From: an uncultured Pseudomonadales bacterium
GTDB lineage: Bacteria; Patescibacteriota; Microgenomatia; UBA1400; UBA1396
Direction: 5' to 3'
Assembly: GCA_964603945.1 (NCBI GenBank)
Contig: CAZRWP010000001.1
Location: 184,547 to 248,546, forward strand
DNA: 64,000 nt
Made by a program: the position numbers and the translations under genes. Below, one piece after another: positions 10,790 through 58,473 of the stretch. Below the pieces are notes generated by a model. That model did no database searches, was not told the DNA's origin, and worked only from the letters and a program-made list of their open reading frames with translations. Every line of letters starts with the position of its first letter. The stretch's first letter is position 1.

Positions 10790-12490
10790 CTAAACCCCAT
10801 CTTCCAAATTCATCACCGCGGATTCCACCGCCTGGATCAGCTGATCTTCGCTTTCTTTAGCCGCCTCTGCTGAGACATCTTTGACCGGCTTGACCAAGGA
10901 ACAACGGAAATCGACTTCAGCTTGAAAACACTCAGTCAAGGCACGCTTAAACATGTCCTTGTATTTGGGTGATTCTAATTTTTCCTGATGAAAGCCCATA
11001 TCAAAACACACCTCAATTTCCTGATTTGCTACCTGGCCTAAACTGGCATTTCTAAGCAGAGATTCCAAAATCGGACTTTGTGTACGAGAAGTTAGCAGAA
11101 GTTTATTCCAAGCAGATTCAACCTGCTGACGAGATAAGGGATTATTTAATTTTTGTTTTGCAGACGAACCATTTTTTGCTGAAATCGCCTCATTTGCCGA
11201 CGAATCCATCGCCACCGCTTCAACGGCCTCAACCTCTGCAATCGCCTCCACATCTGTAATCGCTTCAACCTCTGCCACCACGCTGACATCATCCTTAACT
11301 AGCGGGATGGCCGGTTTTTGATCATTTTTTTTTACGCGGTTGGCGCTGGATTCAGTTTTTTGAGAAGAGTTTGGTTTATCAGGCTTTTTTTTTGTTTTTG
11401 ACGAACTTGCTTGATCAGTGTTTATTTTGTTTTCACCGCCATTTGCTCCAGACTCGCCATTTTCCGCCAAACACCAATCCAGACAAGCCAGTTCAAGCTT
11501 CAGGCCATCAATCGGCTCATAACCGCCAACCCGATCCGCCAAATGCCCAAGTAATCTGGCAATGTGGGAAATGGTCGCGGCCGGTTCCGGCCGTTCAATT
11601 GCCCGGTGCAAGCGCTCCTGCAACTGGTAAAACACCGCTTGTTCTAGGACGGCACTATCTAGGCCGCGCTGGCGATATTCTTGAAAAAACCCAGAAACAG
11701 CCGCCACATCTTTTTTGGCCAAATGCTTGAGCAGGGCAAGACTATCATCTGGACTGCCGGCAATTCGCTTGAGTTGCTCTTCATCAACCGCCTGCTCCTG
11801 TACTACCGCTTCAAAATACTTAACGGCGTCACGGAAACTGCCCTGAGCGGCAACAATAAGTTTCTGCCGAGCCTCTGCCGATAATTTGATTTTTTCTTGT
11901 TTAGCAATTACGTCTAAAACAGCCGTAATCTCATCTGGAGTTGCCTGCCGGAAACGAACCACCTCACACCTGGATTGCACCGTCGCCGGTATCTTGTGAG
12001 GCTCAGTGGTGGCTAAGACGAAAACGACCCGTTCTGGCGGCTCCTCGAGCATCTTTAGCAAGGCATTGAAGGCCTCAGTCGTCAACATGTGGACTTCATC
12101 CAAAATGACTACTCTAATCAAGCCTTCGCTGGGCACCACCGAAATTTGCTCCTGTAGCAAGCGAATATCATCAATTCCGCGGTGGCTGGCGGCGTCCTGC
12201 TCCAGTACCACCTGGGAACGTCCCAAGGCAATCTTCTGCAAAATCGGATCATCGCTGTCGGGTTCTTTAAGCGGACCGGACTGTTTTAAAACTTTTTTAC
12301 TATTGGCAGGATCATTTAGAATTCTGGCCAAAATGCGCGCAGCCGAGGTTTTGCCCGTACCCTTGGGACCAGCAAAAATGTAAGCGTGGGCATAGCGCCC
12401 TGATTTCAAAACACCCTGCAGATACTCTCTAACCGGAGCTAGAGCTAGCTCAGAAACCTTCTGCGGGCGATAAAGTCGATACCATGCCAT
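10790..12490 (-). CDS. dnaX: DNA polymerase III subunit tau/gamma
   Basis: Walker A GPKGTGKTSAARILA, clamp-loader AAA+ domains, Lys/Ser-rich linker then C-terminal tau domains; see finding on A9 tracts. Confidence 0.9.
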   Translation of the reverse strand: MAWYRLYRPQKVSELALAPVREYLQGVLKSGRYAHAYIFAGPKGTGKTSAARILARILNDPANSKKVLKQSGPLKEPDSDDPILQKIALGRSQVVLEQDAASHRGIDDIRLLQEQISVVPSEGLIRVVILDEVHMLTTEAFNALLKMLEEPPERVVFVLATTEPHKIPATVQSRCEVVRFRQATPDEITAVLDVIAKQEKIKLSAEARQKLIVAAQGSFRDAVKYFEAVVQEQAVDEEQLKRIAGSPDDSLALLKHLAKKDVAAVSGFFQEYRQRGLDSAVLEQAVFYQLQERLHRAIERPEPAATISHIARLLGHLADRVGGYEPIDGLKLELACLDWCLAENGESGANGGENKINTDQASSSKTKKKPDKPNSSQKTESSANRVKKNDQKPAIPLVKDDVSVVAEVEAITDVEAIAEVEAVEAVAMDSSANEAISAKNGSSAKQKLNNPLSRQQVESAWNKLLLTSRTQSPILESLLRNASLGQVANQEIEVCFDMGFHQEKLESPKYKDMFKRALTECFQAEVDFRCSLVKPVKDVSAEAAKESEDQLIQAVESAVMNLEDGV

Positions 12491-41775: not shown

Positions 41776-43413
41776 TTACATCATGCCCATGCCGCCCATG
41801 TCAGGCATGCCGCCGCCGGCTCCGCCGGCTGGCTTGTCTTCCTTGACATCGGTAATCAGCACTCGGGTGGTTAAAATCCCACCGGCCACAGAGGCCGCAT
41901 TAATTAAGGCGTGTTTAGCCACCTTCTTAGGATCGATCACTCCCATGGCAATCATGTCGCCAAACTCCAGAGTCAATGAGTTAAAACCATAGTTGGTCTT
42001 TTTAGACTCGGCAATCTTGCCGGCTACCCAACCGCCATCTTCACCAGAGTTGTCAGCCAAAACGCGAACCGGCATTTCCAGGGCGTCCTTGACTAAACGG
42101 ATGCCGGCTTTTTCGTCCGGGTCATCAGCGGTAACTTTAGCCAAAACCTGGCTGGCGTGCAGATAAGCAATACCGCCACCTGGGATTACACCCTCTTCAA
42201 TAGCCGCTCGCGTGGCTTCCTTGGCGTCCTTGACGCGTTCTTGAAGTTCCTTCAGTTCAACTTCCGTGGCGGCACCGACTTTAATCACGGCCACACCGGA
42301 GCTGAGTTTAGCCTTGCGTTCCTGCAGTTTCTCGATATCGAATTCAGAAGTTGAGCTCTTAATCTGAGCTTCCAGCTGAGCCACACGGCCATCAATATCA
42401 GTTTTACTACCCTTTCCGCCGATTAAACGGGTACTGTCTTTGGTTGAGTGAACACTGTCAGCGCGGCCAAGATCCTCAACTTCGACACTAGCTAATGTGC
42501 GTCCAGCCTCAGAGCTGATAACCGTACCGCCGGTTAAAACGGCGATATCTTCCAACATGGCCTTACGGCGATCGCCAAAACCTGGGGCTTTGACCGCTAA
42601 GACATTAAATACACCTCGAAGCTTGTTAACCACCAGGGTCGCCATGGCTTCGCCATCAATATCATCGGCAATTATGACTAAATTCTTGCTAACCTTCATG
42701 AATTTCTCCAGGAAAGGCAGTAGCTCTTGCATATTAGTGATTTTTTGATCGGTAATCAGAAGGTAAGCATCCTCAATGACAGCTTCCATGTGCTCCGTAT
42801 CGGTAACAAAGTAAGGTGAGGCGTAACCCTTGTCAAACTCCATCCCTTCGGTGTGCTCAATGGTGATGTCCATGGTGCGGCCTTCTTCGACCTCAACAAT
42901 ACCATCAGAACCAACCAGTTTGATAGCTTCAGCAATTTTCTGACCAATCCGTTCATCCTGAGCGGAAATCGTGGCCACTTTAACCCAATCCTCTTCCTTA
43001 ACCGGAGTGGCCATCTTGTCGAGCTCAGTCAATACAGCCTGAACAGCTTTGTCGACACCCTTGCGCAACATGATGGGATTAGCCCCAGCGGTAATATTTC
43101 GCATTCCCTTAACTACCAACTGCTGTGCGAGCAGAGTGGCCGTCGTGGTGCCGTCACCGGCAATATCATTAGTCTTGGAAGCGGCTTCCTTAACCAGCTG
43201 AGCACCCATGTTTTCTAATGAATCTTCTAAAGTAACTTCTTTGGCGACCGAGACACCGTCATGCAAAACCACGGGCGGTCCAAAAGATTTGTCGACCGCG
43301 ACATTACTGGCGCGCGGACCATAGGTTGCGACTACCGCCGCGGCAAGTTTGTTTACACCCTCTTGTAGTTTTTCTCGGGCAATGTGATCGAATACGATTT
43401 GTTTAGCTGGCAT
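41776..43413 (-). CDS. groL: chaperonin GroEL
   Basis: 545 aa, Gly/Met-rich GGM-type C-terminus, typical GroEL sequence. Confidence 0.97.
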   Translation of the reverse strand: MPAKQIVFDHIAREKLQEGVNKLAAAVVATYGPRASNVAVDKSFGPPVVLHDGVSVAKEVTLEDSLENMGAQLVKEAASKTNDIAGDGTTTATLLAQQLVVKGMRNITAGANPIMLRKGVDKAVQAVLTELDKMATPVKEEDWVKVATISAQDERIGQKIAEAIKLVGSDGIVEVEEGRTMDITIEHTEGMEFDKGYASPYFVTDTEHMEAVIEDAYLLITDQKITNMQELLPFLEKFMKVSKNLVIIADDIDGEAMATLVVNKLRGVFNVLAVKAPGFGDRRKAMLEDIAVLTGGTVISSEAGRTLASVEVEDLGRADSVHSTKDSTRLIGGKGSKTDIDGRVAQLEAQIKSSTSEFDIEKLQERKAKLSSGVAVIKVGAATEVELKELQERVKDAKEATRAAIEEGVIPGGGIAYLHASQVLAKVTADDPDEKAGIRLVKDALEMPVRVLADNSGEDGGWVAGKIAESKKTNYGFNSLTLEFGDMIAMGVIDPKKVAKHALINAASVAGGILTTRVLITDVKEDKPAGGAGGGMPDMGGMGMM

Positions 43414-46549: not shown

Positions 46550-46600
46550 GTGGATAAAGTATAGCAGAGGGTGATGCTTCAAAAAGGATCAACAATTGTA

Positions 46601-46700
46601 AGCCTCACTTACACTGAGTGCACCTCAAGGAAGCCTCACCCAGGTGAGGCTTCCTTGAGGAAGAGTGCGTGTAAGTAAGGCTTACAATTGCCAATTCCAA
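46601..46700. repeat. 100-bp nested perfect palindrome (outer ~20-bp stem CAATTGTAAGCCTCACTTACAC / GTGTAAGTAAGGCTTACAATTG; inner 18-bp stem CCTCAAGGAAGCCTCACC-CAG-GTGAGGCTTCCTTGAGG) at left boundary of GC-rich island
   Basis: Read directly; followed by two ~33-bp imperfect direct repeats at 46728-46797. Confidence 0.8.
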
Positions 46701-46814
46701 TCTTCCAGGTAGAAGATCTTTGATTGAGTCAGCTACGAGTGGTTTCTGGAAATCCTGTTTGACCGCGTCAGCCACGAACGGTTCCTGCAACTCCTGAGTG
46801 ACCCCCAAACCCAG

Positions 46815-47207
46815 GTGCACGCGCTGGAAGAATCCCATAACAACTACGGCGAATATCTGTTTGTGACACTCAGCCGTCCGAGCGGCAAGCAGCGTGTGTT
46901 TCTGACTTTTTACGGCCTGGGGTACCACGAGTATCGCGAGCGCTGGGTCTATGAGGACTGGTACTGGTACGAATCAGTGCGGGGCGCGGGTATGGAGCAT
47001 CGGCGCGTGCCGCGCAACGCCGCCAGACAGCAGATTGACGAGCGGTACCGGGAGTGCCAGGCAAGCGCTGACCGCGATACCCAGACCAACCGGGGACGCA
47101 TCTTCGAGCTCCTGGCCGACCTGACAGATGAAGACGGCGCCTACACGGAGATGGAAGACTTGCCTTATTGGTTGCTGGATGACGATGAGGAAGGCGACGT
47201 GAGATAA
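46815..47207 (+). CDS. hypothetical acidic protein (130 aa, GTG start), island-encoded
   Basis: ORF in GC-rich segment; competing antisense ORF 46870-47562 judged artefactual. Confidence 0.35.
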   Translation: MHALEESHNNYGEYLFVTLSRPSGKQRVFLTFYGLGYHEYRERWVYEDWYWYESVRGAGMEHRRVPRNAARQQIDERYRECQASADRDTQTNRGRIFELLADLTDEDGAYTEMEDLPYWLLDDDEEGDVR

Positions 47208-47209
47208 GT

Positions 47210-47629
47210 ATGAGCAAGGAAGACACGCCGCTCCAGATGGATATGTTCTCCGGGAAGCTGGTGGACAACCGGACGCGCCAGCAAAAGCGGCAAGACAAGA
47301 CGCGGGAGCAGCCCAAGCAAATCGAGATGTTTTCCCAGCGGGAGATTGCCCAGTTTGGGGTCAATCCAAATCCACTCATGCCGCTCTCACCCAACACCAA
47401 GCTGCTGCTGATTCCCGAAGACCCGCGCACCGAGGAGGAAATCGAGCAGGACAGGCAGCAAGAGGCCGAAAAACGGACGGCGCGGATGTTTGCTGAGCCG
47501 CCGCCCGCACAGGAGACCAAGTCACCGGAGACTATTAATGCCAAACTCGTGCCGGACACCACCGCGCTCGCCCTTGTGCCCAGGGGCGTTGTCGCGGTCG
47601 TCGTTTACGGCTTTTTCTCGCAGATTTAG
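47210..47629 (+). CDS. hypothetical disordered protein (139 aa), island-encoded
   Basis: ATG 3 nt after previous stop; Q/E/R/K-rich. Confidence 0.35.
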   Translation: MSKEDTPLQMDMFSGKLVDNRTRQQKRQDKTREQPKQIEMFSQREIAQFGVNPNPLMPLSPNTKLLLIPEDPRTEEEIEQDRQQEAEKRTARMFAEPPPAQETKSPETINAKLVPDTTALALVPRGVVAVVVYGFFSQI

Positions 47630-47720
47630 CCGTTATAATGGCCTTAGCGTGCTTGCTCCACTACCGGTCATCAGCGTTTCTCATCGAAACCGAAGGTACA
47701 GACTCCCACAAAGCTGGACA

Positions 47721-50700
47721 ATGAACCGGCGGGGCAAGTACGCCAGATTGCCGCTTCTCATTGGCGCGTTACTCCTTCTGACGCTCATTCCGTTTGCTCT
47801 CTTTCGCGGCTCCCAAGCTCCGGAAGCGGAAGCGGCGTGGTGGGACAACTCCTGGCGCTATCGCAAACCCATCCAGGTCACCAACAACACGACTCAGCAA
47901 ACCAACGTCTACATCACCCTCACTCTAGACACCTCAGATACCACCAAGTTCCAGGACGATTGCGGTGACCTGCGCTTCACCAAGCAAAATGGGCAAGTGT
48001 TGCCGTACTACATCGCTAGTGGCTGCGGTACAGCGTCCACTAGCGTACATGTTCAGCTTGATACGTTCCCGGCTGGAGCGCAGACGCTTTATGCCTACTA
48101 CGGGAATCCGTCAGCGCCAAATGGATTTGCTAATAACGACTTCCTGATGGAAGCCACCAACTACACCGTAGGTGGAACCGGAAGTGAGGAAATCGCTCCT
48201 GGTCCAGTTGCTTACTGGAAGTTTGATGAGGGAAGCGGGAGTACCGCGCATGATTCGGCGGGGAGTAATAACGGTAACATCAACGGCGCAACGTGGGTGA
48301 GTGAAGATCAATGTATAGATGGCAAGTGCTTAAATTTTGATGGATTGGACGACTCTGTATCGGCAACCAATCCTTCAAACTTTTGCACACTTCCTTCAAT
48401 AAGCTACGTTGCTTGGGTAAACAGCGACCTTGCTACCCAAAACAACTCTTCTGGAATCATCGTGAATCGACAGTTCAAGCTGACAGCGGGATCGGATTAT
48501 TCCTCTCGTATCTACCTTGAAGACGGTAGCGATGCCACTGTCTTAAAGCAAGTCTCAACGGGGATTCCACTCAATCAAAATGAATGGGATTTTGTGGCAA
48601 CCACTTTTGATCTCGCCGAGGGAAAAATCCACATCTATCTCAACGGCAACTTGATGGCATCAGAATCATTTGATTCCGCCGGACTGACTCTCAATGATGA
48701 TTACTGCACAGCATTGGTCTTGGGAAATGATTACGATAGTAGTAATCGTAAATTTGACGGATACCTTGACGAAGTCAAAATCTTCCCCTACGCCCTGACC
48801 GAAGATGAAATCAAAGCCGAGTACAACCTTGGGGCAGCCGCGGTGATCGGTACCGGGCCAGCGGCTCCGCCGCCATTGGGTGGCAACCTCGATGACTCGC
48901 TGGTGGCTCACTGGGCATTTGACGAACAATCAGGCCAGACCGCGCACGACAAGGTAGGCACCAATCACGGCACCTTGGGCGCGGACACCAATCCGGGGAG
49001 CGATGACCCGACCTGGAAGTCTGTGAGTGAGTGTAAGGTGAATGGGTGTTTGGGGTTTGATGGTACGAACAACTTTATCACCAACTCAAGTCCCGAGAAC
49101 TTGCCAACTGGATCTCAAGCCACTTGGACGTGGTGGTCAAAATCAAGTGCAACGGGATGGAGTGCAAACGCGCTTCTTGGAGACAATAGGTCTCTATGGT
49201 CGATTAGGCAATCGAGTAATTATCTTTATCTAGGGCTAGGAGGAGAAGAGTCTGGCGCAACAGCATCTTTCTCGACGGATGTTAACTGGAGTCATTATGC
49301 TATCACCTTTAATTCTGGTAGCGCTTCTTTCTTCAAGAATGGTGAGATGATCGGCAATTACAGCTTCGCCAACACAACAGTACCAGCGCTTAGCACTCTA
49401 TATGTTGGGAGACGATCGACTGTTGCAGCCCCTTATTTCTTTAACGGCCTCATCGACGAAGTCAAAATCTACAACACCGCCCTCACCCCTGAGCAAGTCC
49501 TCCAGGACATGAACGCCGGCGCCAGTCTCACGGTGGGCGTGGGCGCCGACGAGGCCGACGAGATCATCGACGGCGCGGGCGCTCCGCCGATTGCCGAGTG
49601 GAAGTTTGACGAGAACCAGGGCACGACCGCCTACGACACCAGCGGCAACGGTAACGACGGCACGGTTAATGGAGCGACCTGGAAATCGGGTTGTCAGCAG
49701 GGAGCGTGCTTGGAGTTTGATGGGAATAACCGTATATCTATATCAAATGATCCAATTCTATCCCCTAATCAAGTTACAGTAGGCGTATGGGCAAGACTAT
49801 CTCCTTCATTCAATAGTTGGGGTTATTTAGTTGCCAAAGAATGGGGTTATTCAGGATATGCACTTTATGTGGCTGCGGATAGAAGACCTGTATTCATAAC
49901 TAACGATGGTTCATCTCCGCAAAATATTAATTACGGAAGTACCAATTTGGAGAAAGGCAAATGGTACTATTTGGTTGGAACCTATGACGGAACCAAATCA
50001 ACGATCTACGTTGATGGAGTTTCTGAAAACGTTCAGAGTTTTGACATGGTTCAAAGCTCTTCGACGCTTTTCTTAGGTAATCATGGGGATAATACACGAG
50101 GTTTCAACGGCCAAATCGACCACATCAAAATCTACGACTACGCCCGCACGCCAGCTCAAATTGCCTACGACTACAATCGCGGTGCGCCCGTTGCTCACTG
50201 GAGGTTTGACGAGTGTGAAGGCACCGTCGCCCACGACTCATCTGGCAACGGCAATCACGGCACGATCAACATCGGCCCGTCTGGGAGCCAGAGTACGGCA
50301 GGAACGTGCCAGACTTCCGGCGCGTGGGCCAATGGGAAAGATGGGAAGTTTAATGGGAGCTTGAATTTTGATGGGACGGATGATGTGGTTAACCTTGGCA
50401 ATCCTTCGCGCATAGCAAACTTGAGCACCAATATTACTGCGGCTGTTTGGATTAAACCGACATCTGGCGGTGGAGTATTGTACCGAGGAGCAGGTTCAAA
50501 TTATAATTATTTATTGCAGATTGAGTCTAGCTCACAAATAAGACTAAGGCTTTGGGAAACATTGGGAGATGCTGGATCTGGCATCAATTATCTGGTGCCT
50601 GGACTTAACCTATTTAATTCATGGAATCACATAGCTTTTACTTATGACGGTAATAGTGTGAAAATTTTCGTTAATGCGGAATTGAAAAGCAACACACCCC

Positions 50701-50879
50701 GTTCCGCACCTATCGCAACTGGTGAAACTACCCAGCTGGGTGAATATCCAGGTGGAGGACCTCGCTATTTAACTGGCCAAATCGACGACGTGCGCATCTA
50801 CAACTACGCCCTGTCACCAGCCCAAATCTTGAAGGTCTATAACCAGGGCCAAGCCGTTAACTTCACCCGCGCGAACTGA
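47721..50879 (+). CDS. large membrane-anchored surface protein: N-terminal signal anchor, DUF2341-like domain, four LamG_3 (concanavalin A-like lectin) domains
   Basis: Start chosen at ATG 47721 (MNRRGKYARLPLLIGALLLLTLIPFALF); AWWDNSWRYRKPIQV…DCGDLRF motif (DUF2341-like); four repeats each beginning W(K/A/R)FDE..G.TA.D.SGNGN.GT.NGATW and ending DEV(K/R)I(F/Y).YAL(T/S)..(E/Q)I. Confidence 0.75.
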   Translation: MNRRGKYARLPLLIGALLLLTLIPFALFRGSQAPEAEAAWWDNSWRYRKPIQVTNNTTQQTNVYITLTLDTSDTTKFQDDCGDLRFTKQNGQVLPYYIASGCGTASTSVHVQLDTFPAGAQTLYAYYGNPSAPNGFANNDFLMEATNYTVGGTGSEEIAPGPVAYWKFDEGSGSTAHDSAGSNNGNINGATWVSEDQCIDGKCLNFDGLDDSVSATNPSNFCTLPSISYVAWVNSDLATQNNSSGIIVNRQFKLTAGSDYSSRIYLEDGSDATVLKQVSTGIPLNQNEWDFVATTFDLAEGKIHIYLNGNLMASESFDSAGLTLNDDYCTALVLGNDYDSSNRKFDGYLDEVKIFPYALTEDEIKAEYNLGAAAVIGTGPAAPPPLGGNLDDSLVAHWAFDEQSGQTAHDKVGTNHGTLGADTNPGSDDPTWKSVSECKVNGCLGFDGTNNFITNSSPENLPTGSQATWTWWSKSSATGWSANALLGDNRSLWSIRQSSNYLYLGLGGEESGATASFSTDVNWSHYAITFNSGSASFFKNGEMIGNYSFANTTVPALSTLYVGRRSTVAAPYFFNGLIDEVKIYNTALTPEQVLQDMNAGASLTVGVGADEADEIIDGAGAPPIAEWKFDENQGTTAYDTSGNGNDGTVNGATWKSGCQQGACLEFDGNNRISISNDPILSPNQVTVGVWARLSPSFNSWGYLVAKEWGYSGYALYVAADRRPVFITNDGSSPQNINYGSTNLEKGKWYYLVGTYDGTKSTIYVDGVSENVQSFDMVQSSSTLFLGNHGDNTRGFNGQIDHIKIYDYARTPAQIAYDYNRGAPVAHWRFDECEGTVAHDSSGNGNHGTINIGPSGSQSTAGTCQTSGAWANGKDGKFNGSLNFDGTDDVVNLGNPSRIANLSTNITAAVWIKPTSGGGVLYRGAGSNYNYLLQIESSSQIRLRLWETLGDAGSGINYLVPGLNLFNSWNHIAFTYDGNSVKIFVNAELKSNTPRSAPIATGETTQLGEYPGGGPRYLTGQIDDVRIYNYALSPAQILKVYNQGQAVNFTRAN

Positions 50880-50898
50880 GTTCCGCTCCTTTCCTCGT

Positions 50899-51282
50899 AT
50901 GAGATCGCTACAAATGGCTCTTGAACCATCGCGCAGACATCTGCTACTGTCATCCTTGCCCGTGCGCAAGGAGTGGAAACAACGTCCGGCGCCCATCACT
51001 TTTGAGCAAGTCACACGTCTTGCTCAGGAATCGCTGTTGCGCCAGGGCTCCCACCCACCGACCCTGATCGTTGATGGTTTCAAAAACCCCATTGTTATCC
51101 AAATGGATAGGCTTGCGCCTACGTATGAGGCAAGACTGCAACAGATGTACTTTACTGGTCAGGCGCTATCCCACGAAGGAACTGCCGGTCGGGTGCGATC
51201 CGTCTACTTCGTCACAGAAGCGTGGCTGAGCCAGGCGCGGGAGGGAAAATTGTCTGGTATGCGACCCTCGCAAGACCCGTAG
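50899..51282 (+). CDS. hypothetical protein (127 aa), island-encoded
   Basis: ORF with ATG; no motifs. Confidence 0.35.
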   Translation: MRSLQMALEPSRRHLLLSSLPVRKEWKQRPAPITFEQVTRLAQESLLRQGSHPPTLIVDGFKNPIVIQMDRLAPTYEARLQQMYFTGQALSHEGTAGRVRSVYFVTEAWLSQAREGKLSGMRPSQDP

Positions 51283-51297
51283 CGCAAAGAGGTCCTG

Positions 51298-51495
51298 ATG
51301 GTCAATGGACTGGATCGGTTAATCGGTAAGTCACGCCGAGTCCATCTGGCGATTTTCGAAATGGTGCGTGACGAGCAAGGCACTTTGCGGGAGATTCGCG
51401 ACTATACCTTTCCGGATGATCCGGAGTTGGTTGCCGACACGCCGCTGCTGGAAGCGTTTTTGACCGGGTTTTGGACAAAAGGCGGGTTGCGGTAA
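51298..51495 (+). CDS. hypothetical small protein (65 aa), island-encoded
   Basis: ORF only. Confidence 0.25.
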   Translation: MVNGLDRLIGKSRRVHLAIFEMVRDEQGTLREIRDYTFPDDPELVADTPLLEAFLTGFWTKGGLR

Positions 51496-51547
51496 TCGAG
51501 GGAAAACAGTAAGGATCGTGGTGATTTTGCGATTTTCATAGCCGTAG

Positions 51548-51814
51548 CTAGCGGGTGTCTTTTCGTTTCTTCTGCTTCGCTTTATTGCTTGCCGGTTCAG
51601 TGCGCACTATTAGATCAAGGGTAGCAATTCCCAAAACTGCGGCCAGCCTGTCGAGAGTGTCGAGATCTGGACGGACGACTGGTTCAGTTTTTAGACGGTG
51701 TAAAGTGCTTAATGAAATACCCGCTTTCTTGGCTAGTTCAGTGTAAGTTAGCCGGCGTTGATTCTCGACTTCCCATCTAAATATGTGTTTGTCAATATCC
51801 AGCCAATACGGCAT
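51548..51814 (-). CDS. XRE-family helix-turn-helix transcriptional regulator (88 aa)
   Basis: HTH segment LTYTELAKKAGISLSTLHRLKT typical of XRE/Cro-C1. Confidence 0.7.
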   Translation of the reverse strand: MPYWLDIDKHIFRWEVENQRRLTYTELAKKAGISLSTLHRLKTEPVVRPDLDTLDRLAAVLGIATLDLIVRTEPASNKAKQKKRKDTR

Positions 51815-51874
51815 ATAGCTCCTTGGTTTTTCTACTTGTTTTGTAATATTTCTTTGAAATTATATCAAACCAGG

Positions 51875-52504
51875 TCATAGGTTCAACCGCTTCACCACCT
51901 CCTCAAGCTCATCGTCGGTAACTCCCAAGTACCGCTTGGTGTACGCTAGGCTGGCGTGGTTGAGCTTGTACATGATGAGCGCCAGATCCACCCCACTCAT
52001 GCGGGCGTGATAGCCCCAGGTCTTGCGTAAACTGTGTGTGCCGAAGTTGCCACGCAAGCCAATATCCGCGCAGATTCTGGTAATAAACTTCCAGGCTTGC
52101 CCGCGCTTGATTGGCTCGCGAAAGTTGTTCACCCTGACGTTGAAAAAGACGTAGTTGTCCGGATCGCTCGCAACAGCCGGATAGGCAACCAGATACTCGC
52201 CGAGTGCCTCCCGAATGCTGTCGTTAATGACAACCTCCTGCCTCTTGCCCCGCTTCTCTTCATTGATAGCAAAGCGGCGGCGGATAAGGCCCCGTTCATC
52301 TAAGAAGTGATGAATGCGCAGATTGAGTAAGTCCGAAATGCGCAGCGCGGAGTTGATCCCTACGGTAAACAGCAGCAGGTCGCGGTAACGACCTTGTCCG
52401 CGCAGTTGGTTCTTAATCTGCGCGATGCGCTTGCGGTCGCGGATGGGTTCAACAAAGTTCATATTTTCTTCGGGTGTTTGTGTGGCGTGGTTTGTAGTGA
52501 ACAC
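51875..52504 (-). CDS. small tyrosine site-specific recombinase/integrase (catalytic domain only, ~196-209 aa; ATG at 52462, upstream GTG at 52504)
   Basis: Catalytic residues R (NSALRISDL), HxxR (THSLRKTW), C-terminal Tyr region (LAYTKRYLG). Confidence 0.75.
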   Translation of the reverse strand: MFTTNHATQTPEENMNFVEPIRDRKRIAQIKNQLRGQGRYRDLLLFTVGINSALRISDLLNLRIHHFLDERGLIRRRFAINEEKRGKRQEVVINDSIREALGEYLVAYPAVASDPDNYVFFNVRVNNFREPIKRGQAWKFITRICADIGLRGNFGTHSLRKTWGYHARMSGVDLALIMYKLNHASLAYTKRYLGVTDDELEEVVKRLNL

Positions 52505-52532
52505 AACCGCTGTATAGAGCCAATGTGTTCAC
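52497..52532. promoter_or_regulatory. inverted repeat GTGAACACA-N18-TGTGTTCAC overlapping the recombinase 5' end; candidate operator or recombination core site
   Basis: 9-bp perfect arms read directly. Confidence 0.4.
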
Positions 52533-52710
52533 TAAGAACAGCCTATCAAACGCAGCTGGCCGTTACAAGCACCGATTTACCGGGGATTTTCAGTAATAGT
52601 AGACTTAATAGATATCGTGTTTACTTGGGTGTTTGAGTGCAGTGATTGGGGTGGTCGCTGTGGTTAGGTGATTGATTGTGGTCGCACCAGCCGCTACACT
52701 GACCTCAGTT

Positions 52711-52953
52711 ATGACAGACGCAACAGCCACGGCAGATACGCCACCTAACACAATCACCCCGATCACTATAACCGCCACGGAGCTTCGCAAAAGTCCTGGT
52801 CAGTTCTTGGATCGCGTGTTTTATCGCGGCGAGAGCTTTGTCGTGGAGAGGGCAGGGAAGCCAATGGCGGTAATTGGGCCGATCAACGATATGGAGGCTT
52901 ACGAATCAGGAGTTCGAGAGATGAAAAAAGACACACCAAGTCTCCATTTATAA
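52711..52953 (+). CDS. Phd/YefM-family antitoxin-like protein (ATG at 52711; TTG at 52672 possible)
   Basis: …ITATELRKSPGQFLDRVFYRGESFVVERAGKPMAVIGPINDMEAYE… resembles YefM N-terminal fold pattern. Confidence 0.55.
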   Translation: MTDATATADTPPNTITPITITATELRKSPGQFLDRVFYRGESFVVERAGKPMAVIGPINDMEAYESGVREMKKDTPSLHL

Positions 52954-52960
52954 AGGTCAT

Positions 52961-53299
52961 ATGACATACACCGAGTTAGCAAAAATCGCGATGGATACGA
53001 GAAAGCTGTTTGAGAGTTATGAGAAACAGAGTACTGGAAAAACCTGGGGCACTGAGGAGCTGTTGATTGGCTTGGTCACTGACGTTGGTGATTTAGCACG
53101 ATTGATTCTTGCTAAAGAAGGTTTTCGAGCGGCGGATAAAGACATTGATAAGGCCATGAGGCACGAGTTGGCAGACTGCTTCTGGGCAATTATCGTGCTA
53201 TCAGAAAAATACGATATCAATCTCGAAGATGCGTTGGTAGAAATGAGTAAGGATATCAGAGAAAAACTAAAGTCTTTTAGTGAACAAAGAATTACGTGA
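52961..53299 (+). CDS. MazG-like (all-alpha NTP pyrophosphohydrolase, YpjD-type) protein
   Basis: EELLIGLVTDVGDLARLI…MRHELADCFWAIIVLSEKYDINLEDAL matches EExGEL…E(E/L)(G/A)D.LW..LCLAN MazG-domain pattern; RBS AAAGG; 8 nt after Phd-like gene. Confidence 0.6.
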   Translation: MTYTELAKIAMDTRKLFESYEKQSTGKTWGTEELLIGLVTDVGDLARLILAKEGFRAADKDIDKAMRHELADCFWAIIVLSEKYDINLEDALVEMSKDIREKLKSFSEQRIT

Positions 53300-53323
53300 G
53301 GGTCCTTTCATCAAGCGGTGCAA

Positions 53324-53710
53324 CTACCGCTCACAATTCTCATGGACTTTCACAGGTAACTTCTTATACTGCTTGGCCGCGGTCAGGCTCAACCCAAACT
53401 TGCGCGCTTCGGAGAACACCACCGGCAAGGCGGTCGTCACGAACTGCTGCACTTCCTCGACAAACAGGTAAAACGGCGCAATCGCCGCGTTCTCGTCGGC
53501 GCGCCGCGTCATAGCCGCCATCTGGAAATCGGTGATCAGCATCGCGCCGAGGTTGGCCTGCTCGCTGCGCGTCTCGTCGCTGTTGAGGTTCGCCAGAAAA
53601 ATCTTGCCCTCGTCCAGAATGGCTTTGAAGTCCAGGCGGTGCGGGTGGCAGACCATGTTGCGCACCGCGCTGTTGCGGTAGAAGATGCGGATGAGGGCTT
53701 CCCCTCTTGG
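53324..53710 (-). pseudogene. C-terminal fragment of a TraG/VirD4/HerA-type (DUF87-like) conjugative ATPase; 5' end truncated at island/ldh junction
   Basis: Open frame extends to stop at 53711 without a credible start; FYLFVEEVQQF (Walker-B-like hhhhDE) and SEARKFGLSLTAAKQ (…RKyGv.l.laTQ) motifs typical of the C-terminal part of these ATPases. Confidence 0.5.
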
Positions 53711-53742
53711 CTAAAAGCTAATGCTTATGCTACGCTGACCTC

Positions 53743-54693
53743 ATGCAAAGAGAAAATTTTAAGGTTGGAATAATAGGTTGCGGCAAGGTCGGCATGACCA
53801 CGGCATATGCCCTACTTTTAAAAGGTTTGCCCACGGAGCTCGTTTTGGTTGACCGCAAAAAGGAGTATGTCGAGGGCGAAGACCTCGACCTCGAGCACGG
53901 GATGCCTTTCATGCAAAAGGCCATCATTACCGGCACCGAGAATTACGAAGACTTGCGCGAGGCTGACGTGGTGATTTTCACAGCCGGCGCCGCACAAAAA
54001 CCGGGCGAATCGCGTCTGGATCTGACCGCCAAAAACAAGGCGATTGTTGAAGAAATCATCCCAAAAATTCTGCAATACGCACCCTCAGCCCTCATCATTA
54101 TGGTGACAAATCCGGTCGATGTCTTGACCTTTCACGCCAATCAAGTTGCACAGGCAATCAGTCAAGCCGGCACAGCCAACGTCCGGCCAGGCCAAATTTT
54201 TGGTTCAGGTACTTTGCTGGACACTTCGCGTTTCCGCTTCCACTTGTCGGAAATGCTCAATCTGCATCCGCGTAGTATTCACGCCTATATTTTGGGCGAG
54301 CATGGCGACAGTTCCTTCCCGACTTTGCATTCCGCCACTGTGGGTGGTCAGCGCCTAACCACTCTGCCGGATTTTTCCATGGAAATGGCTGAGTCAGCTT
54401 ACGAGCAAGCCAAGAACGCCGCCTACAAAATTATTGAGGGCAAAGGCGCGACTTATTACGCCATCGCCACCGTTCTAACCCACATAGTAGAAGCAATTCA
54501 TCATGACAACCGTTCGGTTTTACCACTTTCAACACCCATCAATGATTATCATGGTCACAGCGGAGTTTCTTTGAGCGTGCCTTGTGTCATCAGTCGGCAG
54601 GGAATTGAGCGTACATTGGTAATTGATTTATCTGATGAAGAAAAGGGTAAGCTCGCCCACTCCGTCGACACCATTCGGCAATATCAAGGATAA
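53743..54693 (+). CDS. ldh: L-lactate dehydrogenase
   Basis: GIIGCGKVG Rossmann motif, LDH active-site signature ILGEHGDSS, 316 aa. Confidence 0.9.
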   Translation: MQRENFKVGIIGCGKVGMTTAYALLLKGLPTELVLVDRKKEYVEGEDLDLEHGMPFMQKAIITGTENYEDLREADVVIFTAGAAQKPGESRLDLTAKNKAIVEEIIPKILQYAPSALIIMVTNPVDVLTFHANQVAQAISQAGTANVRPGQIFGSGTLLDTSRFRFHLSEMLNLHPRSIHAYILGEHGDSSFPTLHSATVGGQRLTTLPDFSMEMAESAYEQAKNAAYKIIEGKGATYYAIATVLTHIVEAIHHDNRSVLPLSTPINDYHGHSGVSLSVPCVISRQGIERTLVIDLSDEEKGKLAHSVDTIRQYQG

Positions 54694-54760
54694 ATCGACC
54701 CCATTCGGCAGTATCAAGGTTAAGCTAACACCATTCGGCAGTATCAAGGATGATCAGATA
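54671..54760. repeat. three tandem 30-bp units (19-bp conserved CCATTCGGCARTATCAAGG + 11-bp variable) starting in the last 7 codons of ldh
   Basis: Units at 54671, 54701, 54731. Confidence 0.75.
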
Positions 54761-54850
54761 TTAATTCTGTAAAAATCAGACTTTTCAAAGCCATGACAAT
54801 CCAGCTATACTGGATTAGAGGTTCTGCCCAACGTAAAAAAAGGAGAAAAT

Positions 54851-55168
54851 ATGAACTCACCATTAATATTACCTGTAACTCTGGCCATTGCCGGCGTTTT
54901 GGCCTTCATGGCTACCACCGGTTTATTACCACCAACGCTATTCCGACTCTGGCCGATCGTGTTTGTAATTCTGGGTATTGTTGGTCTCTTGTCACTTAGC
55001 AGTGAAGAGTTAGAGATGTCCGATTCCAAGCCAACTAAGAAGAAGTCATCGGCCAAGCAGGCTAAGACATCAGCCAAGAAAACCAGTAAAGCCTCCACCA
55101 AATCCAAGGCAACAAAATCAGCTAAAAAAAGCAAAACAACTACCAGAAAAACTGCCAAAAAGAAGTAG
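54851..55168 (+). CDS. small membrane protein with two TM helices and Lys/Ser/Thr-rich basic tail (105 aa)
   Basis: Strong RBS AAAGGAGAAAATATG; hydrophobic N-half then KKKSSAKQAKTSAKKTSK… tail. Confidence 0.55.
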   Translation: MNSPLILPVTLAIAGVLAFMATTGLLPPTLFRLWPIVFVILGIVGLLSLSSEELEMSDSKPTKKKSSAKQAKTSAKKTSKASTKSKATKSAKKSKTTTRKTAKKK

Positions 55169-55170
55169 GC

Positions 55171-55884
55171 ATGACACCACTCGCTCAACCTTTTCAGGTC
55201 GCAATTGATGGGCCAGTTTCAGTCGGTAAAAGTACAATCGCCAGATTGCTGGCTCAGCGATTAGGTTTTTTGTATGTCGATACCGGTGCTATGTACCGCG
55301 CCACTGGCTTACTGGCTATTCGCGAAGGTGTTGATCCAAATGATGAGGAAGAGGTCTCAGCTTTACTGAGAAGCCATCACATTACCCTCGCTTCTCCCCA
55401 AGGTCAAAAGGATGACGGTCGAAAAATAACAGTTTACTTGGATGATGAGGACGTTTCCTGGTCAATTCGCACCGAAGAAGTCAGCAAAGCTTCTTCTCAG
55501 GTGGCTCAGCATAAAAAAGTCCGGGAACAATTAGTTCATCAGCAACAGGAGATTGCCGCCAAAAATAACGTGGTCATGGAAGGCCGCGATATTACTTATC
55601 GGGTTCTGCCCAAGGCTCAGTTAAAAATTTATTTGGATGCCAATGATCTCAAACGCGCCGAGTGGCGACATACCGAACTGCTTTTACTCGCACAAGATGT
55701 TACGCTAGATGAAGTCGTCGCTGAACTTCGGGAACGGGATGATCGCGACAAGAACCGCGCTGTCGACCCGCTTCAAGTAGTTGATGATGCCTGGTATTTT
55801 GACCGATCAGATTTAGAACTTGAAGAGGCTCTGGATCTGATAGAAAAGCGAGCGAAAGAGTTATGGCTACAAAGCGCAACCTAA
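55171..55884 (+). CDS. cmk: cytidylate kinase
   Basis: P-loop IDGPVSVGKSTIARLLAQRLGFLYVDTGAMYRA. Confidence 0.88.
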   Translation: MTPLAQPFQVAIDGPVSVGKSTIARLLAQRLGFLYVDTGAMYRATGLLAIREGVDPNDEEEVSALLRSHHITLASPQGQKDDGRKITVYLDDEDVSWSIRTEEVSKASSQVAQHKKVREQLVHQQQEIAAKNNVVMEGRDITYRVLPKAQLKIYLDANDLKRAEWRHTELLLLAQDVTLDEVVAELRERDDRDKNRAVDPLQVVDDAWYFDRSDLELEEALDLIEKRAKELWLQSAT

Positions 55885-56043
55885 AACCAGCTGAGGAAAG
55901 ATACAAAAAAGCCCGCTGGGTGATGCCAGTTCTCTTGGCGTTAAGCGTGCTTTTATCTTTATATTTCTGGACCCAAGGCTAAGATTAGCCAATATTATCC
56001 AAGATTAGCCAAGATTTAGCCAAAATAATCCAATACTAGCCAA

Positions 56044-58473
56044 CTATATGCCGGCAGTTTTTGAGTCAGGTTCTGGCGTGGGCGAAAACATTGAGGCCGT
56101 ACAGTGGTGAGTCGGCGCCATACCTTGAGGGAATATCTCCTCTATTACTTTAGGACATTCAGCGCATGGAAGCGTATTCGTGGGCAGGCAAATTTTGACC
56201 TTTTCAAAACCGTCTGGTGTCTGAAAAGCGTGCAATTGCTGTCGGTCAGTCAACAGACTATCCATAATGTGTCGCCAAATAGGTGAAGCACCGGTAATGC
56301 CAGAGGCAACTGAGCTCATGGGCGTGTTATCGTTATTGCCCACCCAACTAACTACGACCCTATCCGATGTGTAGCCAATCGTCCAGTTGTCTCGCAAGTT
56401 ATTGGTGGTGCCGGTTTTTACAGCGACTTCATGTTCAGCTACATTGAGAATTGAGTTTTGGCCAAAAGCCGGCGCCCTAGCTTGTTTGTCACTTAAAATG
56501 CTGGTTACCTGATAAGCCGCTAACGGATTAACTGTTTGTCTAGCCAGACATGGCTGTTCTTGCTCCTGACATGGATTGTGGTAAAGAGTTTTGCCTTCCG
56601 GGGTCTGCACCTGCAAAATGGGATTCAATTCAACCGTATAACCGGTATTAGCTAGAGTTCCATAGACTTCAGCCATGTCATACATAGTGACATCACCACC
56701 ACCCAGCGTTAAAGCAAAACCAAAGCGGGACGAATCTTCCCAAGTATCAATTCCCATATCTTGACCTTTTGTTACCACATTGTTCACACCCAACTGAGCA
56801 ATCAACCGCACTGCCGGAATATTGTAAGAGCTGGCTAGAGCCTCGCGCAAAGACACGCGACCATGGAACCGGCCATCATAATTTTTTGGCGCCCAAGGCT
56901 GAGAGCCGGGGATTTTATACACCACTGGCGTGTCGTCAATTATGGTTGAGGGAGTGAAGCCGTGCTCGAAAGCCACCGCGTACGTGACCGGCTTAATCGA
57001 ACTTCCAGGCTGGCGCGGCCTCAAGGTGACATTCACCTGGCCGTCATTAGAACTGTCAAAATAATCCTTACTGCCCACCATGGCTAGAATTTCTCCCGAG
57101 CGGGGGTCGGTCACCAAGGCCGCGCCGTTACGCACGTCCAATCTGGCTAGGCGGTCCAGTTCCTGGCGAACGGACGCTTCCGCCGATGCCTGAACTGTTA
57201 AATCCAAAGAGGTCCATACTTCTAAACCGCCGCGGCTGACCATTTCTTCGCCATACTCTTTTTCCAATAAATCTCGCACATACATCACAAAATGTGGCGC
57301 TTGTATCTCGTAACGGTTATGCCGAAAATCAAGCTCCTCTTGCGTAGCCATGGCCACTTCTTCAGCCGAAATGTAGCCTAAATATTCCATGCGTTTAAGC
57401 ACATCCAACTGACGCAGGCTTGACCGCTCTGGCGTTGGACCAAACGGTGAATAGGCAGTGGGCGCTACTGGCAAACCGGCCAAAAACGCACTTTCCGCTA
57501 GACTCAGTTCTTTAGCCGACTTGCCAAAATACCATTGGCTAGCCTGTTCAATCCCATAAACAGATCCGCCATAATTAACCTCATTGAGATACCGCTCCAG
57601 AATCTCTTCTTTGGAATAAAGTGCATCAACTGCTACAGCCAGAACAGCCTCTCTGACTTTACGCTGGATTGTTTTTTCTGGTGATAAAAGTGTGTTTTTA
57701 ACTAATTGTTGTGTAATCGTAGAGCCGCCGTGAACACCTGGCTCACTGGAAAGATTATGTTCCAATGCCCTAACTATACCTTTTAGCGAGATTCCCCAGT
57801 GCTCATAAAATTTGTCATCTTCAATGGCTAAAGTTGCTTTAACTAAATGAGGAGAAATATCTTCCAACTTTACCGGCACACGATCTTCTTCATCAAATAA
57901 GGTATAAAGAAGTTGGCCATTGCGGTCATATATCTTTGTTGTCATGGCCGGACGGCGTTCTCGTAACGAATATGGAGAAGGCAGTTCTCTAAAAACAAAG
58001 TCATAAACTAGGTAACCAGCCAAAATAAAAGTTGTTAAAAATAAAAGACTGGAAATTAGTGGAATTACTAAAGTTGATGGCGGTGGTTCAATACGTCGGA
58101 CATGTTCCCAAATCTCTCGCCGCATTTTTTTGAGCCATGCTTGAATTAGCTGACGCAACCACCACCACTCAAAATTTATACTCCACCAAATCTGCTGTCC
58201 GAGTGAGTCAAATGTCAGCCAGTCATAATAAAATGGATCTTTCCTTAATTTGGATAATGAGATGGTTGAAACTGTGGTTTTCTCTTGCCAATTACGAATT
58301 GCTTTACTTAATGAAAGTGTCAAATTGCCTATAATTGAAGGGATTGACCAAATAAATTCAAAAAAAATTAGAAAGGGTAAACCGAACCAATACAAGGCCT
58401 TCAAAATCAAGCCGAAATTTCTGCTAATCCTACCCACAACTTCATTAAACCAGGCTACCCCACCTGACGACAA
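56044..58473 (-). CDS. class A penicillin-binding protein (bifunctional GT51 transglycosylase/transpeptidase) with ~150-aa Trp-rich N-terminal membrane extension
   Basis: GT51 motifs ATLAIEDDKFYEHWGIS and GGSTITQQLVKN; transpeptidase SSIK (SxxK), SYN (SxN), KTGTT. Confidence 0.88.
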   Translation of the reverse strand: MSSGGVAWFNEVVGRISRNFGLILKALYWFGLPFLIFFEFIWSIPSIIGNLTLSLSKAIRNWQEKTTVSTISLSKLRKDPFYYDWLTFDSLGQQIWWSINFEWWWLRQLIQAWLKKMRREIWEHVRRIEPPPSTLVIPLISSLLFLTTFILAGYLVYDFVFRELPSPYSLRERRPAMTTKIYDRNGQLLYTLFDEEDRVPVKLEDISPHLVKATLAIEDDKFYEHWGISLKGIVRALEHNLSSEPGVHGGSTITQQLVKNTLLSPEKTIQRKVREAVLAVAVDALYSKEEILERYLNEVNYGGSVYGIEQASQWYFGKSAKELSLAESAFLAGLPVAPTAYSPFGPTPERSSLRQLDVLKRMEYLGYISAEEVAMATQEELDFRHNRYEIQAPHFVMYVRDLLEKEYGEEMVSRGGLEVWTSLDLTVQASAEASVRQELDRLARLDVRNGAALVTDPRSGEILAMVGSKDYFDSSNDGQVNVTLRPRQPGSSIKPVTYAVAFEHGFTPSTIIDDTPVVYKIPGSQPWAPKNYDGRFHGRVSLREALASSYNIPAVRLIAQLGVNNVVTKGQDMGIDTWEDSSRFGFALTLGGGDVTMYDMAEVYGTLANTGYTVELNPILQVQTPEGKTLYHNPCQEQEQPCLARQTVNPLAAYQVTSILSDKQARAPAFGQNSILNVAEHEVAVKTGTTNNLRDNWTIGYTSDRVVVSWVGNNDNTPMSSVASGITGASPIWRHIMDSLLTDRQQLHAFQTPDGFEKVKICLPTNTLPCAECPKVIEEIFPQGMAPTHHCTASMFSPTPEPDSKTAGI

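Follow-up and report, generated by a model that had tools for sequence, protein, structure and literature searches.

The 64,000-nucleotide (nt) stretch of DNA considered here (the window; positions 184,547 to 248,546 of contig CAZRWP010000001.1, assembly GCA_964603945.1) carries at 47721-50879, on the forward strand, a single intact open reading frame (ORF) of 1052 amino acids (aa) for a protein with a DUF2341 domain and four LamG domains, along which conserved and hypervariable blocks alternate. We think it likely that this is a scaffold-and-slot gene on a left-truncated integrative element, that its LamG cores are swapped by recombination in the conserved joints between them, and that the stripes of synonymous base composition seen along the gene follow from this structure. 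The fixed scaffold would consist of the N-terminal region, the start of the first LamG domain (J0), three joints (J1-J3) and a C-terminal block, all position-specific and conserved as DNA throughout the family, with the four LamG cores serving as exchangeable slots. Whole cores would be replaced by homologous recombination between element copies and related genes, with crossovers falling within the flanking joints.

Joints and cores of the LamG gene

Block limits were taken from an alignment of 16 family members; all blocks lie on the forward strand and the identities quoted for them are means over alignment columns. The N-terminal region (aa 1-155), with a hydrophobic helix at aa 9-30 and the DUF2341 sandwich, is followed by J0, the conserved start of LamG1 (aa 156-209, 48186-48347, identity 0.72), and by C1, the hypervariable LamG1 core (aa 210-347, 48348-48761, 0.21). 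J1 then takes in the end of LamG1, a linker and the start of LamG2 (aa 348-448, 48762-49064, 0.71), and from there hypervariable cores and joints alternate: C2 in LamG2 (aa 449-576, 49065-49448, 0.21), J2 (aa 577-670, 49449-49730, 0.74-0.75), C3 in LamG3 (aa 671-795, 49731-50105, 0.22), J3 (aa 796-888, 50106-50384, 0.79), C4 in LamG4 (aa 889-1017, 50385-50771, 0.21) and, finally, the conserved end of LamG4 (aa 1018-1046, 50772-50858, 0.70). A joint is made up of the last strands and a short helix of one LamG domain, a linker and the first strands of the next, and the cores are ~125-138 aa long.

The change from joint to core, or from core to joint, is completed within 2-5 codons, directly after the motif FDGxDDYV and directly before FxGxIDEVKI. 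In relatives, all of which come from metagenome assemblies and are designated below by L and P numbers, the joints are 70-95% conserved and the cores are about as unlike one another as unrelated LamG domains. Matching limits for J1 come from blastn, which places it at 48768-49063 against L006, L003/L004, L007 and L069 (80-89% nt identity), and J2 is 83-90% identical in nt to its counterparts in L003, L005, L006 and L007. Start and end motifs that an earlier reading of this DNA, made from the sequence only, had ascribed to every repeat fit loosely, with repeat 2 starting HWAFDEQSGQTAHDKVGTNHGTLG and repeats 3 and 4 ending in IDHIKIY and IDDVRIY. Recent gene conversion among the four repeats was considered and rejected, since joints at different positions are just 65-75% identical as DNA.

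The case for core replacement comes from comparisons with relatives. Relative to L006, the closest of them, the backbone genes of the element have a synonymous divergence (dS) of 0.53-0.65 and the joints one of 0.50-0.58; nonsynonymous divergence (dN) in the cores is ~1.05-1.14, which amounts to saturation and is twice the backbone dS. A special synonymous constraint on the joints is rejected by this same pair, as joint dS equals that of the backbone. Among L155, L157 and L158, with 90-91% nt identity over 5-8.6 kb that include the 5' part of the LamG gene, the joints are 91-95% identical and the cores unalignable (19-27% aa identity, one pair at 48%). Taken over all pairs, core identity has a median of 0.27 at the same position and at different positions alike, and values above 40% are found in 7 of 420 same-position and 5 of 1260 different-position comparisons. 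The distribution is all-or-none, 100, 90, 67 or 64% in a few pairs and ~27% in the rest, regardless of backbone divergence.

Single cores are common to pairs of genes at 87-100% identity although the other cores of those genes are unrelated. L006 and L068 have core 4 in common; their cores 1-3 show no relation, and identity in the remaining joints is 72-87%. In J3 of this pair the first 191 nt contain 20 mismatches; there follows a tract of 559 nt with 0 mismatches, which takes in the rest of J3 and core 4 in full and ends within the C-terminal block, after which mismatches resume, the flanks being ~89% identical. Both ends of the tract thus fall within conserved flanks, which is what homologous recombination would produce. 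L003 and L069, in turn, have only the N-terminal region through core 1 to J1 in common. Cassettes have therefore been exchanged between gene copies by homologous recombination in the joints in these relatives (L006/L068, L003/L069). Related cores also occur at non-equivalent positions, C2 of the window gene having its only relative in C4 of P0014, a Patescibacteria-type gene, at 54-55% identity, and L035 and L049, two paralogues in one Levybacteria metagenome-assembled genome, sharing 472 nt at 94%. The nearest neighbours of the LamG gene differ from block to block. Taken together, the comparisons support a gene family that would have diversified by recombination of LamG cassettes, as the sequence-only reading had proposed; what had been taken for the exchange of whole repeats is at the family level an exchange of cores. 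By extension, we infer that the copy in the window may itself be exchanging cores.

The cores would be supplied by a large pool that the element shares with chromosomal genes for multi-LamG proteins in Patescibacteria. The position-specific joint motifs recur in hundreds of DUF2341/multi-LamG proteins, most of them from Patescibacteria, and in paralogues within Patescibacteria genomes, often in tandem, islands of joint similarity alternate with unalignable cores. The DNA similarity of the window gene to such distant genes is confined to the joints: blastn matches average 27 over J3, the highest stretch, and ~0.1-0.6 over the cores. A metagenome scan yielded, for the most part, distant genes of Patescibacteria type and only a single partial close relative, L075. 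For several of the element-borne cores there are relatives at 50-70% identity in Patescibacteria-type chromosomal genes, far closer than any core of their own subfamily, and the pool of cores is on this account shared. An exhaustive phmmer search with core 3 of 1.84 billion representatives found distant LamG domains only, with identities of 25-43% among the matches listed; the top match owes its high score to eight repeats, each ~32% identical. The Patescibacteria-type loci L024, L033, L017, L098, L077 and L083 often hold two or three multi-LamG/DUF2341 genes in tandem, an arrangement that would put potential recombination partners side by side.

Synonymous composition and competing explanations

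Attention had been drawn to this gene by a claim that its LamG repeats differ strikingly in GC, with intervals of ~60% and ~40%. These values are essentially right, the GC content being 0.605 at 48780-49050, 0.656 at 49480-49700 and 0.40 at both 49700-50100 and 50400-50700, except that 49080-49460 has 0.47. The mosaic is real; the contrast, however, is one of joint against core within every repeat and not one between repeats. It is also synonymous. GC content at third codon positions (GC3), calculated in 40-codon windows along the gene, ranges from 0.17 to 0.90 with a standard deviation (SD) of 0.164, the largest among the 39 ORFs of the window, and 5000 shuffles of synonymous codons within the gene give SDs of 0.076 +/- 0.009 with a maximum of 0.111, placing the observed value at z=10. 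The amino-acid-stratified Mantel-Haenszel odds ratio between GC-rich and GC-poor parts is 3.7 (p=8e-19), and codons ending in C and in G are both enriched in the joints, including those for Lys, Glu and Gln. Because the stripes survive both stratification and shuffling, the Ala/Gly/Pro composition of the linkers is not their cause.

By block, GC3 is 0.67 in J1, 0.80 in J2, 0.67 in J3 and 0.72 in the C-terminal block, with J0 at only 0.46, against 0.45, 0.44, 0.29 and 0.33 in C1 to C4 (joints versus cores, Fisher p=2e-18). All five family genes compared as DNA (window, L003, L005, L006, L007) have the same stripes, with joints at 0.68-0.75, cores at 0.38-0.48 and p values from 1e-9 to 1e-23, and most further relatives in a set of 11 genes share them; the more distant L070/P0014 lack the contrast (0.41 versus 0.40). 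GC3 per alignment column rises with amino-acid conservation (Spearman 0.39, p=2e-37). The pattern extends in weaker form to 172 multi-LamG genes, in which domain edges exceed cores in GC3 by a median of 0.08, by more than 0.1 in 65 and by more than 0.2 in 15, and one locus among them, from Patescibacteria with 39% GC, has edges at 0.56 and cores at 0.23. Compared with neighbouring genes (111 genes), edges lie higher by a median of 0.04 and cores lower by a median of 0.04 (both p<1e-8), so that an edge excess and a core deficit are both present, in shares that cannot be apportioned. Marked intragenic GC3 heterogeneity is found, too, in the window genes at 990-2237, 10790-12490 and 56044-58473, with windows up to 0.88 and SDs of 0.106-0.125, smaller than in the LamG gene.

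The scaffold-and-slot organisation would account for the stripes in that the joints have the same history as the element backbone, and the same codon usage, while the cores behave as accessory DNA. Joints would keep the backbone composition and may be driven further toward GC by repair associated with recombination, a bias described for bacteria (Lassalle et al. 2015, PMC4450053). Cores, having no homologous partner, would turn over like accessory DNA and have lower GC3, to which AT drift or an origin from DNA of lower GC might contribute. Biased conversion, foreign origin of the cores, or both, would then presumably underlie the contrast.

A number of observations weigh against the scaffold-and-slot reading. 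In the window and in L006 the GC3 of the joints is about equal to that of the element backbone, which differs from gene to gene, and in L003, L005 and L007 the joints exceed the upstream backbone by just 0.03-0.13; as the joints are largely at backbone GC3, no special GC-raising force in them is required for the element family. No variants of the window gene were seen, three assemblies giving an identical sequence, and tblastn over the 64 kb found the gene itself and no other LamG sequence that could act as donor. The proposal of the sequence-only reading that the cassettes are of different origin gains from core 2, with its 55% relative in a Patescibacteria-type gene, and not from cores 1, 3 and 4, for which no relative above ~32% identity was found and hence no donor taxa can be named. 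The window copy has no transfer genes and may be a decaying remnant. Finally, assemblers may jump from one co-occurring variant to another where the joints are conserved, which would produce false mosaics. The caveat holds for individual mosaics; as an explanation of the whole pattern it is improbable, given the long contigs and the identical full-length proteins from independent samples.

Of the alternatives, the one that bears on exchange itself is that the cores diverged in place, under strong diversifying selection or relaxed constraint, with AT-biased mutation lowering their GC3 and purifying selection freezing the joints. Cores are generally the least constrained part of LamG domains, those of the window gene share no cassette above 55%, and over 111 genes cores lie below neighbouring genes in GC3. 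In-place divergence is nevertheless decidedly unlikely in our view: core identity is all-or-none and independent of backbone divergence, unrelated cores sit in elements with 90% identical backbones, the 559-nt identical tract is bounded within conserved flanks, related cores occur at different positions, and a core dN of ~1.1 is twice the backbone dS. A further explanation, concerning composition only and not exchange, attributes the stripes to selection on codon choice, whether for accuracy at conserved residues or for paced folding of the beta-sandwiches. It draws strength from the correlation of GC3 with column conservation and from the recurrence of the edge excess across multi-LamG genes in genomes of different GC, and such selection may contribute. 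As the explanation of the stripes we hold it to be rather unlikely, given that C- and G-ending codons are both raised, those for Lys, Glu and Gln among them, a sign of general GC pressure rather than of a preferred-codon set, and that the joints largely match the backbone genes in the element family. An effect of 0.2-0.3 in GC3 is, to our knowledge, far above known accuracy effects.

A dedicated machine that varies the cores, be it a diversity-generating retroelement, shufflon-type inversion or conversion from nearby silent cassettes, might be thought of in view of the tyrosine recombinase 1 kb downstream and the hypervariability of the family. We give it hardly any credence. The island ORFs scanned include no reverse transcriptase, neither the gene nor the window holds a second copy of any core that might serve as template, and the 64 kb contain no silent LamG fragments; inverted repeats are weak (14-22 nt, at most 88%) and none brackets the cores, which vary in length and are ~20-27% identical, unlike the products of adenine-targeted mutagenesis. 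The recombinase is the integrase of the element and is kept at the element end in relatives. Very improbable as well is an artefact, either of linker composition or of chimeric assembly. The linkers are indeed rich in Ala, Pro and Gly, with GC at first codon positions peaking there, and Logan contigs break at the island edge; the third-position contrast nonetheless survives stratification and synonymous shuffling, which refutes amino-acid composition as its source, the identical gene is found in three assemblies with the same stripes in homologues, and in a sister strain this chromosomal site is likewise occupied by a related element.

Predicted fold, known systems and possible role

The protein architecture noted from the sequence, DUF2341 followed by four LamG domains, is borne out by Pfam, with a DUF2341 match (PF10102) at aa 80-134 of 39.7 bits, the cut-off being 23.4, and Laminin_G_3 matches (PF13385) in four stretches totalling 306 bits. 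In an AlphaFold model with a mean pLDDT of 80, aa 9-30 form a helix and aa 47-153 a beta-sandwich, and the four LamG domains each add a further beta-sandwich. The hydrophobic helix (47745-47810, forward strand) is a candidate signal peptide or membrane anchor and is followed in the sequence by AEA|AWW, where cleavage after AEA may be supposed; the DUF2341 sandwich (47859-48179, forward strand), delimited by PF10102 and the modelled strands, has a GC3 of ~0.65. Flexible linkers are modelled after LamG1 and LamG2, and J3 lacks one. The top Foldseek matches are the neurexin LNS1-6 and laminin LG arrays (E 3e-22). The reading that fits best is that of a protein that would be exported or anchored in the membrane, with a hydrophobic helix and a DUF2341 sandwich ahead of four LamG jelly rolls in tandem.

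Upstream of the gene lies an intergenic leader of 91 nt (47630-47720, forward strand) with a TATAAT box at 47634-47639. It is conserved in L003, L005, L006 and L007, where in-frame translation upstream of the LamG ATG is kept. No clear Shine-Dalgarno sequence is visible in 47630-47720, and there is no Rfam match to it.

For DUF2341 a link to PilY-type pilus-tip adhesins has been drawn (PMC4858521), and LamG proteins are discussed as candidate attachment proteins of cells of the candidate phyla radiation (CPR; PMC11310336, PMC11809585). Judged from topology and from folds of lectin type, a role as adhesin is conceivable, and the likeliest role would be that of a binding or recognition protein that determines specificity, in the service of the cell or else of the element (mating contact, exclusion, recognition).

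The closest kin of the protein are the surface proteins of Patescibacteria/CPR that combine DUF2341 with several Laminin_G_3 domains, with which it shares architecture, position-specific joint motifs and 29-37% overall identity, and whose multi-LamG paralogues likewise have conserved joints and unalignable cores. It differs from them as a compact four-LamG branch residing on an integrative element with a GC3-rich backbone. The resemblance to neurexin LNS1-6 and laminin LG arrays, also strings of LamG jelly rolls and the best structural matches of the model, would be one of fold only, these proteins being eukaryotic and just 8-14% identical.

In the HsdS subunits of type I restriction-modification systems, target-recognition domains are swapped between conserved regions and new specificities arise by homologous recombination there. 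The LamG gene may be likened to HsdS in having variable recognition modules between conserved spacers, but fold and cellular location are unrelated and there are four slots in place of two, making this an analogy of mechanism and not of membership. Mosaic tail-fibre and receptor-binding proteins of phages exchange modular binding domains at conserved junctions and draw on a large pool of alleles, and a parallel might be seen in carriage on a mobile element, in modules exchanged at junctions and in the size of the pool; the island, by contrast, has no virion genes, no PHROG matches for its backbone ORFs and no close relatives in IMG/VR or among GenBank phages. An origin from a phage was rejected, searches of IMG/VR, GenBank phages and PLSDB plasmids having given only generic LamG similarity of 22-32%. 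PilV, the shufflon adhesin of IncI plasmids, and the polymorphic TraA of Myxococcus have a variable lectin-like part that sets partner specificity. Here the common ground would be the setting, on a mobile element or in cell contact, together with the transfer-type genes of fuller element relatives, whereas the LamG gene lacks invertible segments and recombination-site repeats and is seen to vary from one element copy to another, not inside a single cell line.

Multi-LamG/DUF2341 proteins rank with the largest and commonest of the predicted surface proteins of Patescibacteria and are the usual candidates for host attachment. A fixed scaffold with four swappable cores would provide a concrete, testable mechanism for the evolution of their specificity, and we found no description of such an organisation, or of GC3 stripes, in the literature searched. 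The conserved joints could be used as primer or probe sites for reading core diversity in communities. In addition, a GC3 contrast repeated four times in one reading frame offers a natural test of GC bias from recombination against AT-richness of accessory DNA.

The island, its relatives and its host

The LamG gene lies on an island of ~6.7 kb (46691-53366), a left-truncated copy of an element from an integrative, probably transfer-capable family. Homology to the element backbones of L006, L003, L005 and L007 extends from 46755 to ~52886, and host-flank homology to the sister-strain contigs L159 and L161 resumes at 53367. Most island genes have a GC3 of 0.69-0.77, with 0.44 in the helix-turn-helix (HTH) regulator and 0.57 in the 127-aa ORF described below, versus ~0.45 for the rest of the window. 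No flanking direct repeats of the att type were found; at the left edge there is instead a near-perfect palindrome of 98 nt (46593-46690), between the start of ddl and the island, with 48-nt arms that are 85% complementary and a hairpin energy, as DNA, of -40 kcal/mol (z=-11.4). It contains, at 46662, the starts of two independent Logan contigs, whose sole difference from the window is at 46677. The palindrome could be a recombination or termination site, or merely a breaker of assemblies. Rfam families near the island are limited to tRNA-Cys.

Reading rightward, a 130-aa ORF (46815-47207, forward strand) is a 5'-truncated homologue of a 175/177-aa ORF of the element, 90% identical in aa to that of L006 (dS 0.53), with homology to the L006 ORF (6956-7480) starting just at L006 position 7031. 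A 139-aa ORF (47210-47629, forward; dS 0.63 versus L006) is the constant partner directly upstream of the LamG gene, 137-139-aa ORFs being found in the same position in L003, L004, L005, L155, L156, L157 and L158. Downstream of the LamG gene comes a conserved element gene of 127 aa (50899-51282, forward; 80-84% nt identity to L006 and L159, dS 0.65 versus L006). These three ORFs and their longer homologues match no Pfam or PHROG family. There follow on the reverse strand a Cro/C1-type HTH regulator of 88 aa (51548-51814; Pfam HTH_26 E 4e-12, PHROG repressor families) and a tyrosine recombinase/integrase of 209 aa (51875-52504; Phage_integrase E 3e-22, phrog_216 integrase E 1e-46, 85-86% nt identity to L006 and L159), the latter kept at the element end in L005, L156, L157 and L159. 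At the right end (52672-53299, forward) are an ORF for a Phd/YefM-type antitoxin (PhdYeFM_antitox E 1e-7) and a MazG-like ORF (MazG E 3e-4, just below the family cut-off); the antitoxin is common to the window and L159, with a different partner gene in each.

The tyrosine recombinases of these elements are unusually short, 195-219 aa (also L005 18093-18680, L156 18803-19390), essentially a catalytic domain only, in which no N-terminal DNA-binding domain is recognisable. Some relatives have beside pyrF a large serine recombinase of ~600 aa, with the short tyrosine integrase or replacing it (L004 1310-3121; L005 2262-4058, 18849-19204), which suggests alternative integration modules in the element family.

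With homology beginning at 46755, inside the 175/177-aa ORF, the island has neither a relaxase/Replic_Relax gene nor a coupling ATPase. The fuller relatives L156, L157 and L158 carry upstream two Replic_Relax genes, an 896-aa TrwB/TraG/HerA-like ATPase, DUF2958 and small ORFs. In such relatives variable defence cargo separates the LamG gene from the integrase, namely a cyclic oligonucleotide-based antiphage signalling system (CBASS), Qat or an OLD-family nuclease. The corresponding slots at L003 13323-17928, L005 15930-17954, L155 8542-9849 and L156/L157 14012-18431 contain QatB/QueC/TatD with a KAP NTPase, an OLD-family nuclease, or CBASS with SAVED, E2/ThiF and a DncV-like nucleotidyltransferase; that of L157 also holds an Acb5-like gene.

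As to the host, the GroEL encoded in the window (41776-43413) has its best named relatives, at 67-71%, exclusively in Patescibacteria, to which the host would therefore probably belong. Sister-strain contigs whose ldh flank is 98% identical carry a different element variant at the same site, with shared genes 84-86% identical, and the site is hence a real integration spot in this lineage and looks like a hot spot. Identity of 84-86% between L159 and window positions 50940-56376 is found in the regions of the 127-aa ORF and the integrase; the L159 element has CBASS-like SAVED/SMODS cargo, Replic_Relax and a ParE-like toxin, and in it the place that the four-LamG gene holds in the window is taken by a LamG gene unrelated to it and encoded on the opposite strand.

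The closest element copies (86% nt identity in the backbone) are on contigs labelled Thermoflexus sp. and Anaerolineae by their submitters, and the pyrF gene flanking L004 belongs to a cluster, formed at 90% identity, that bears the name Anaerolineae/Chloroflexota. The fuller relatives of the element likewise occur in contigs assigned to Anaerolineae/Chloroflexota. The element family thus seems to span two phyla, a statement that depends in part on the labels of submitters. Occurrence in a Patescibacteria genome and in Anaerolineae-type contigs could connect a symbiont with its host. It is conceivable, and we put this forward tentatively as a doubtful extension of the scaffold-and-slot reading, that the family is transfer-capable and moves between Anaerolineae (Chloroflexota) and Patescibacteria, maybe a host and its epibiont, with the four-slot LamG array acting as a partner-recognition 'lock' of the element or the cell and acquiring its cores, through recombination at joints that are universally conserved, from the large pool of chromosomal adhesins in Patescibacteria. 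What keeps this extension open is the combination of the GroEL affiliation, the Thermoflexus-labelled backbone at 86%, pyrF in L004, the element variant at the same site in the sister strain and the core relatives at 50-70%. Just inside the host-conserved flank, beside ldh, there is in addition a 113-aa ORF (53324-53665, reverse strand) that has no Pfam family and whose GC3 of 0.83 is unlike that of the host.

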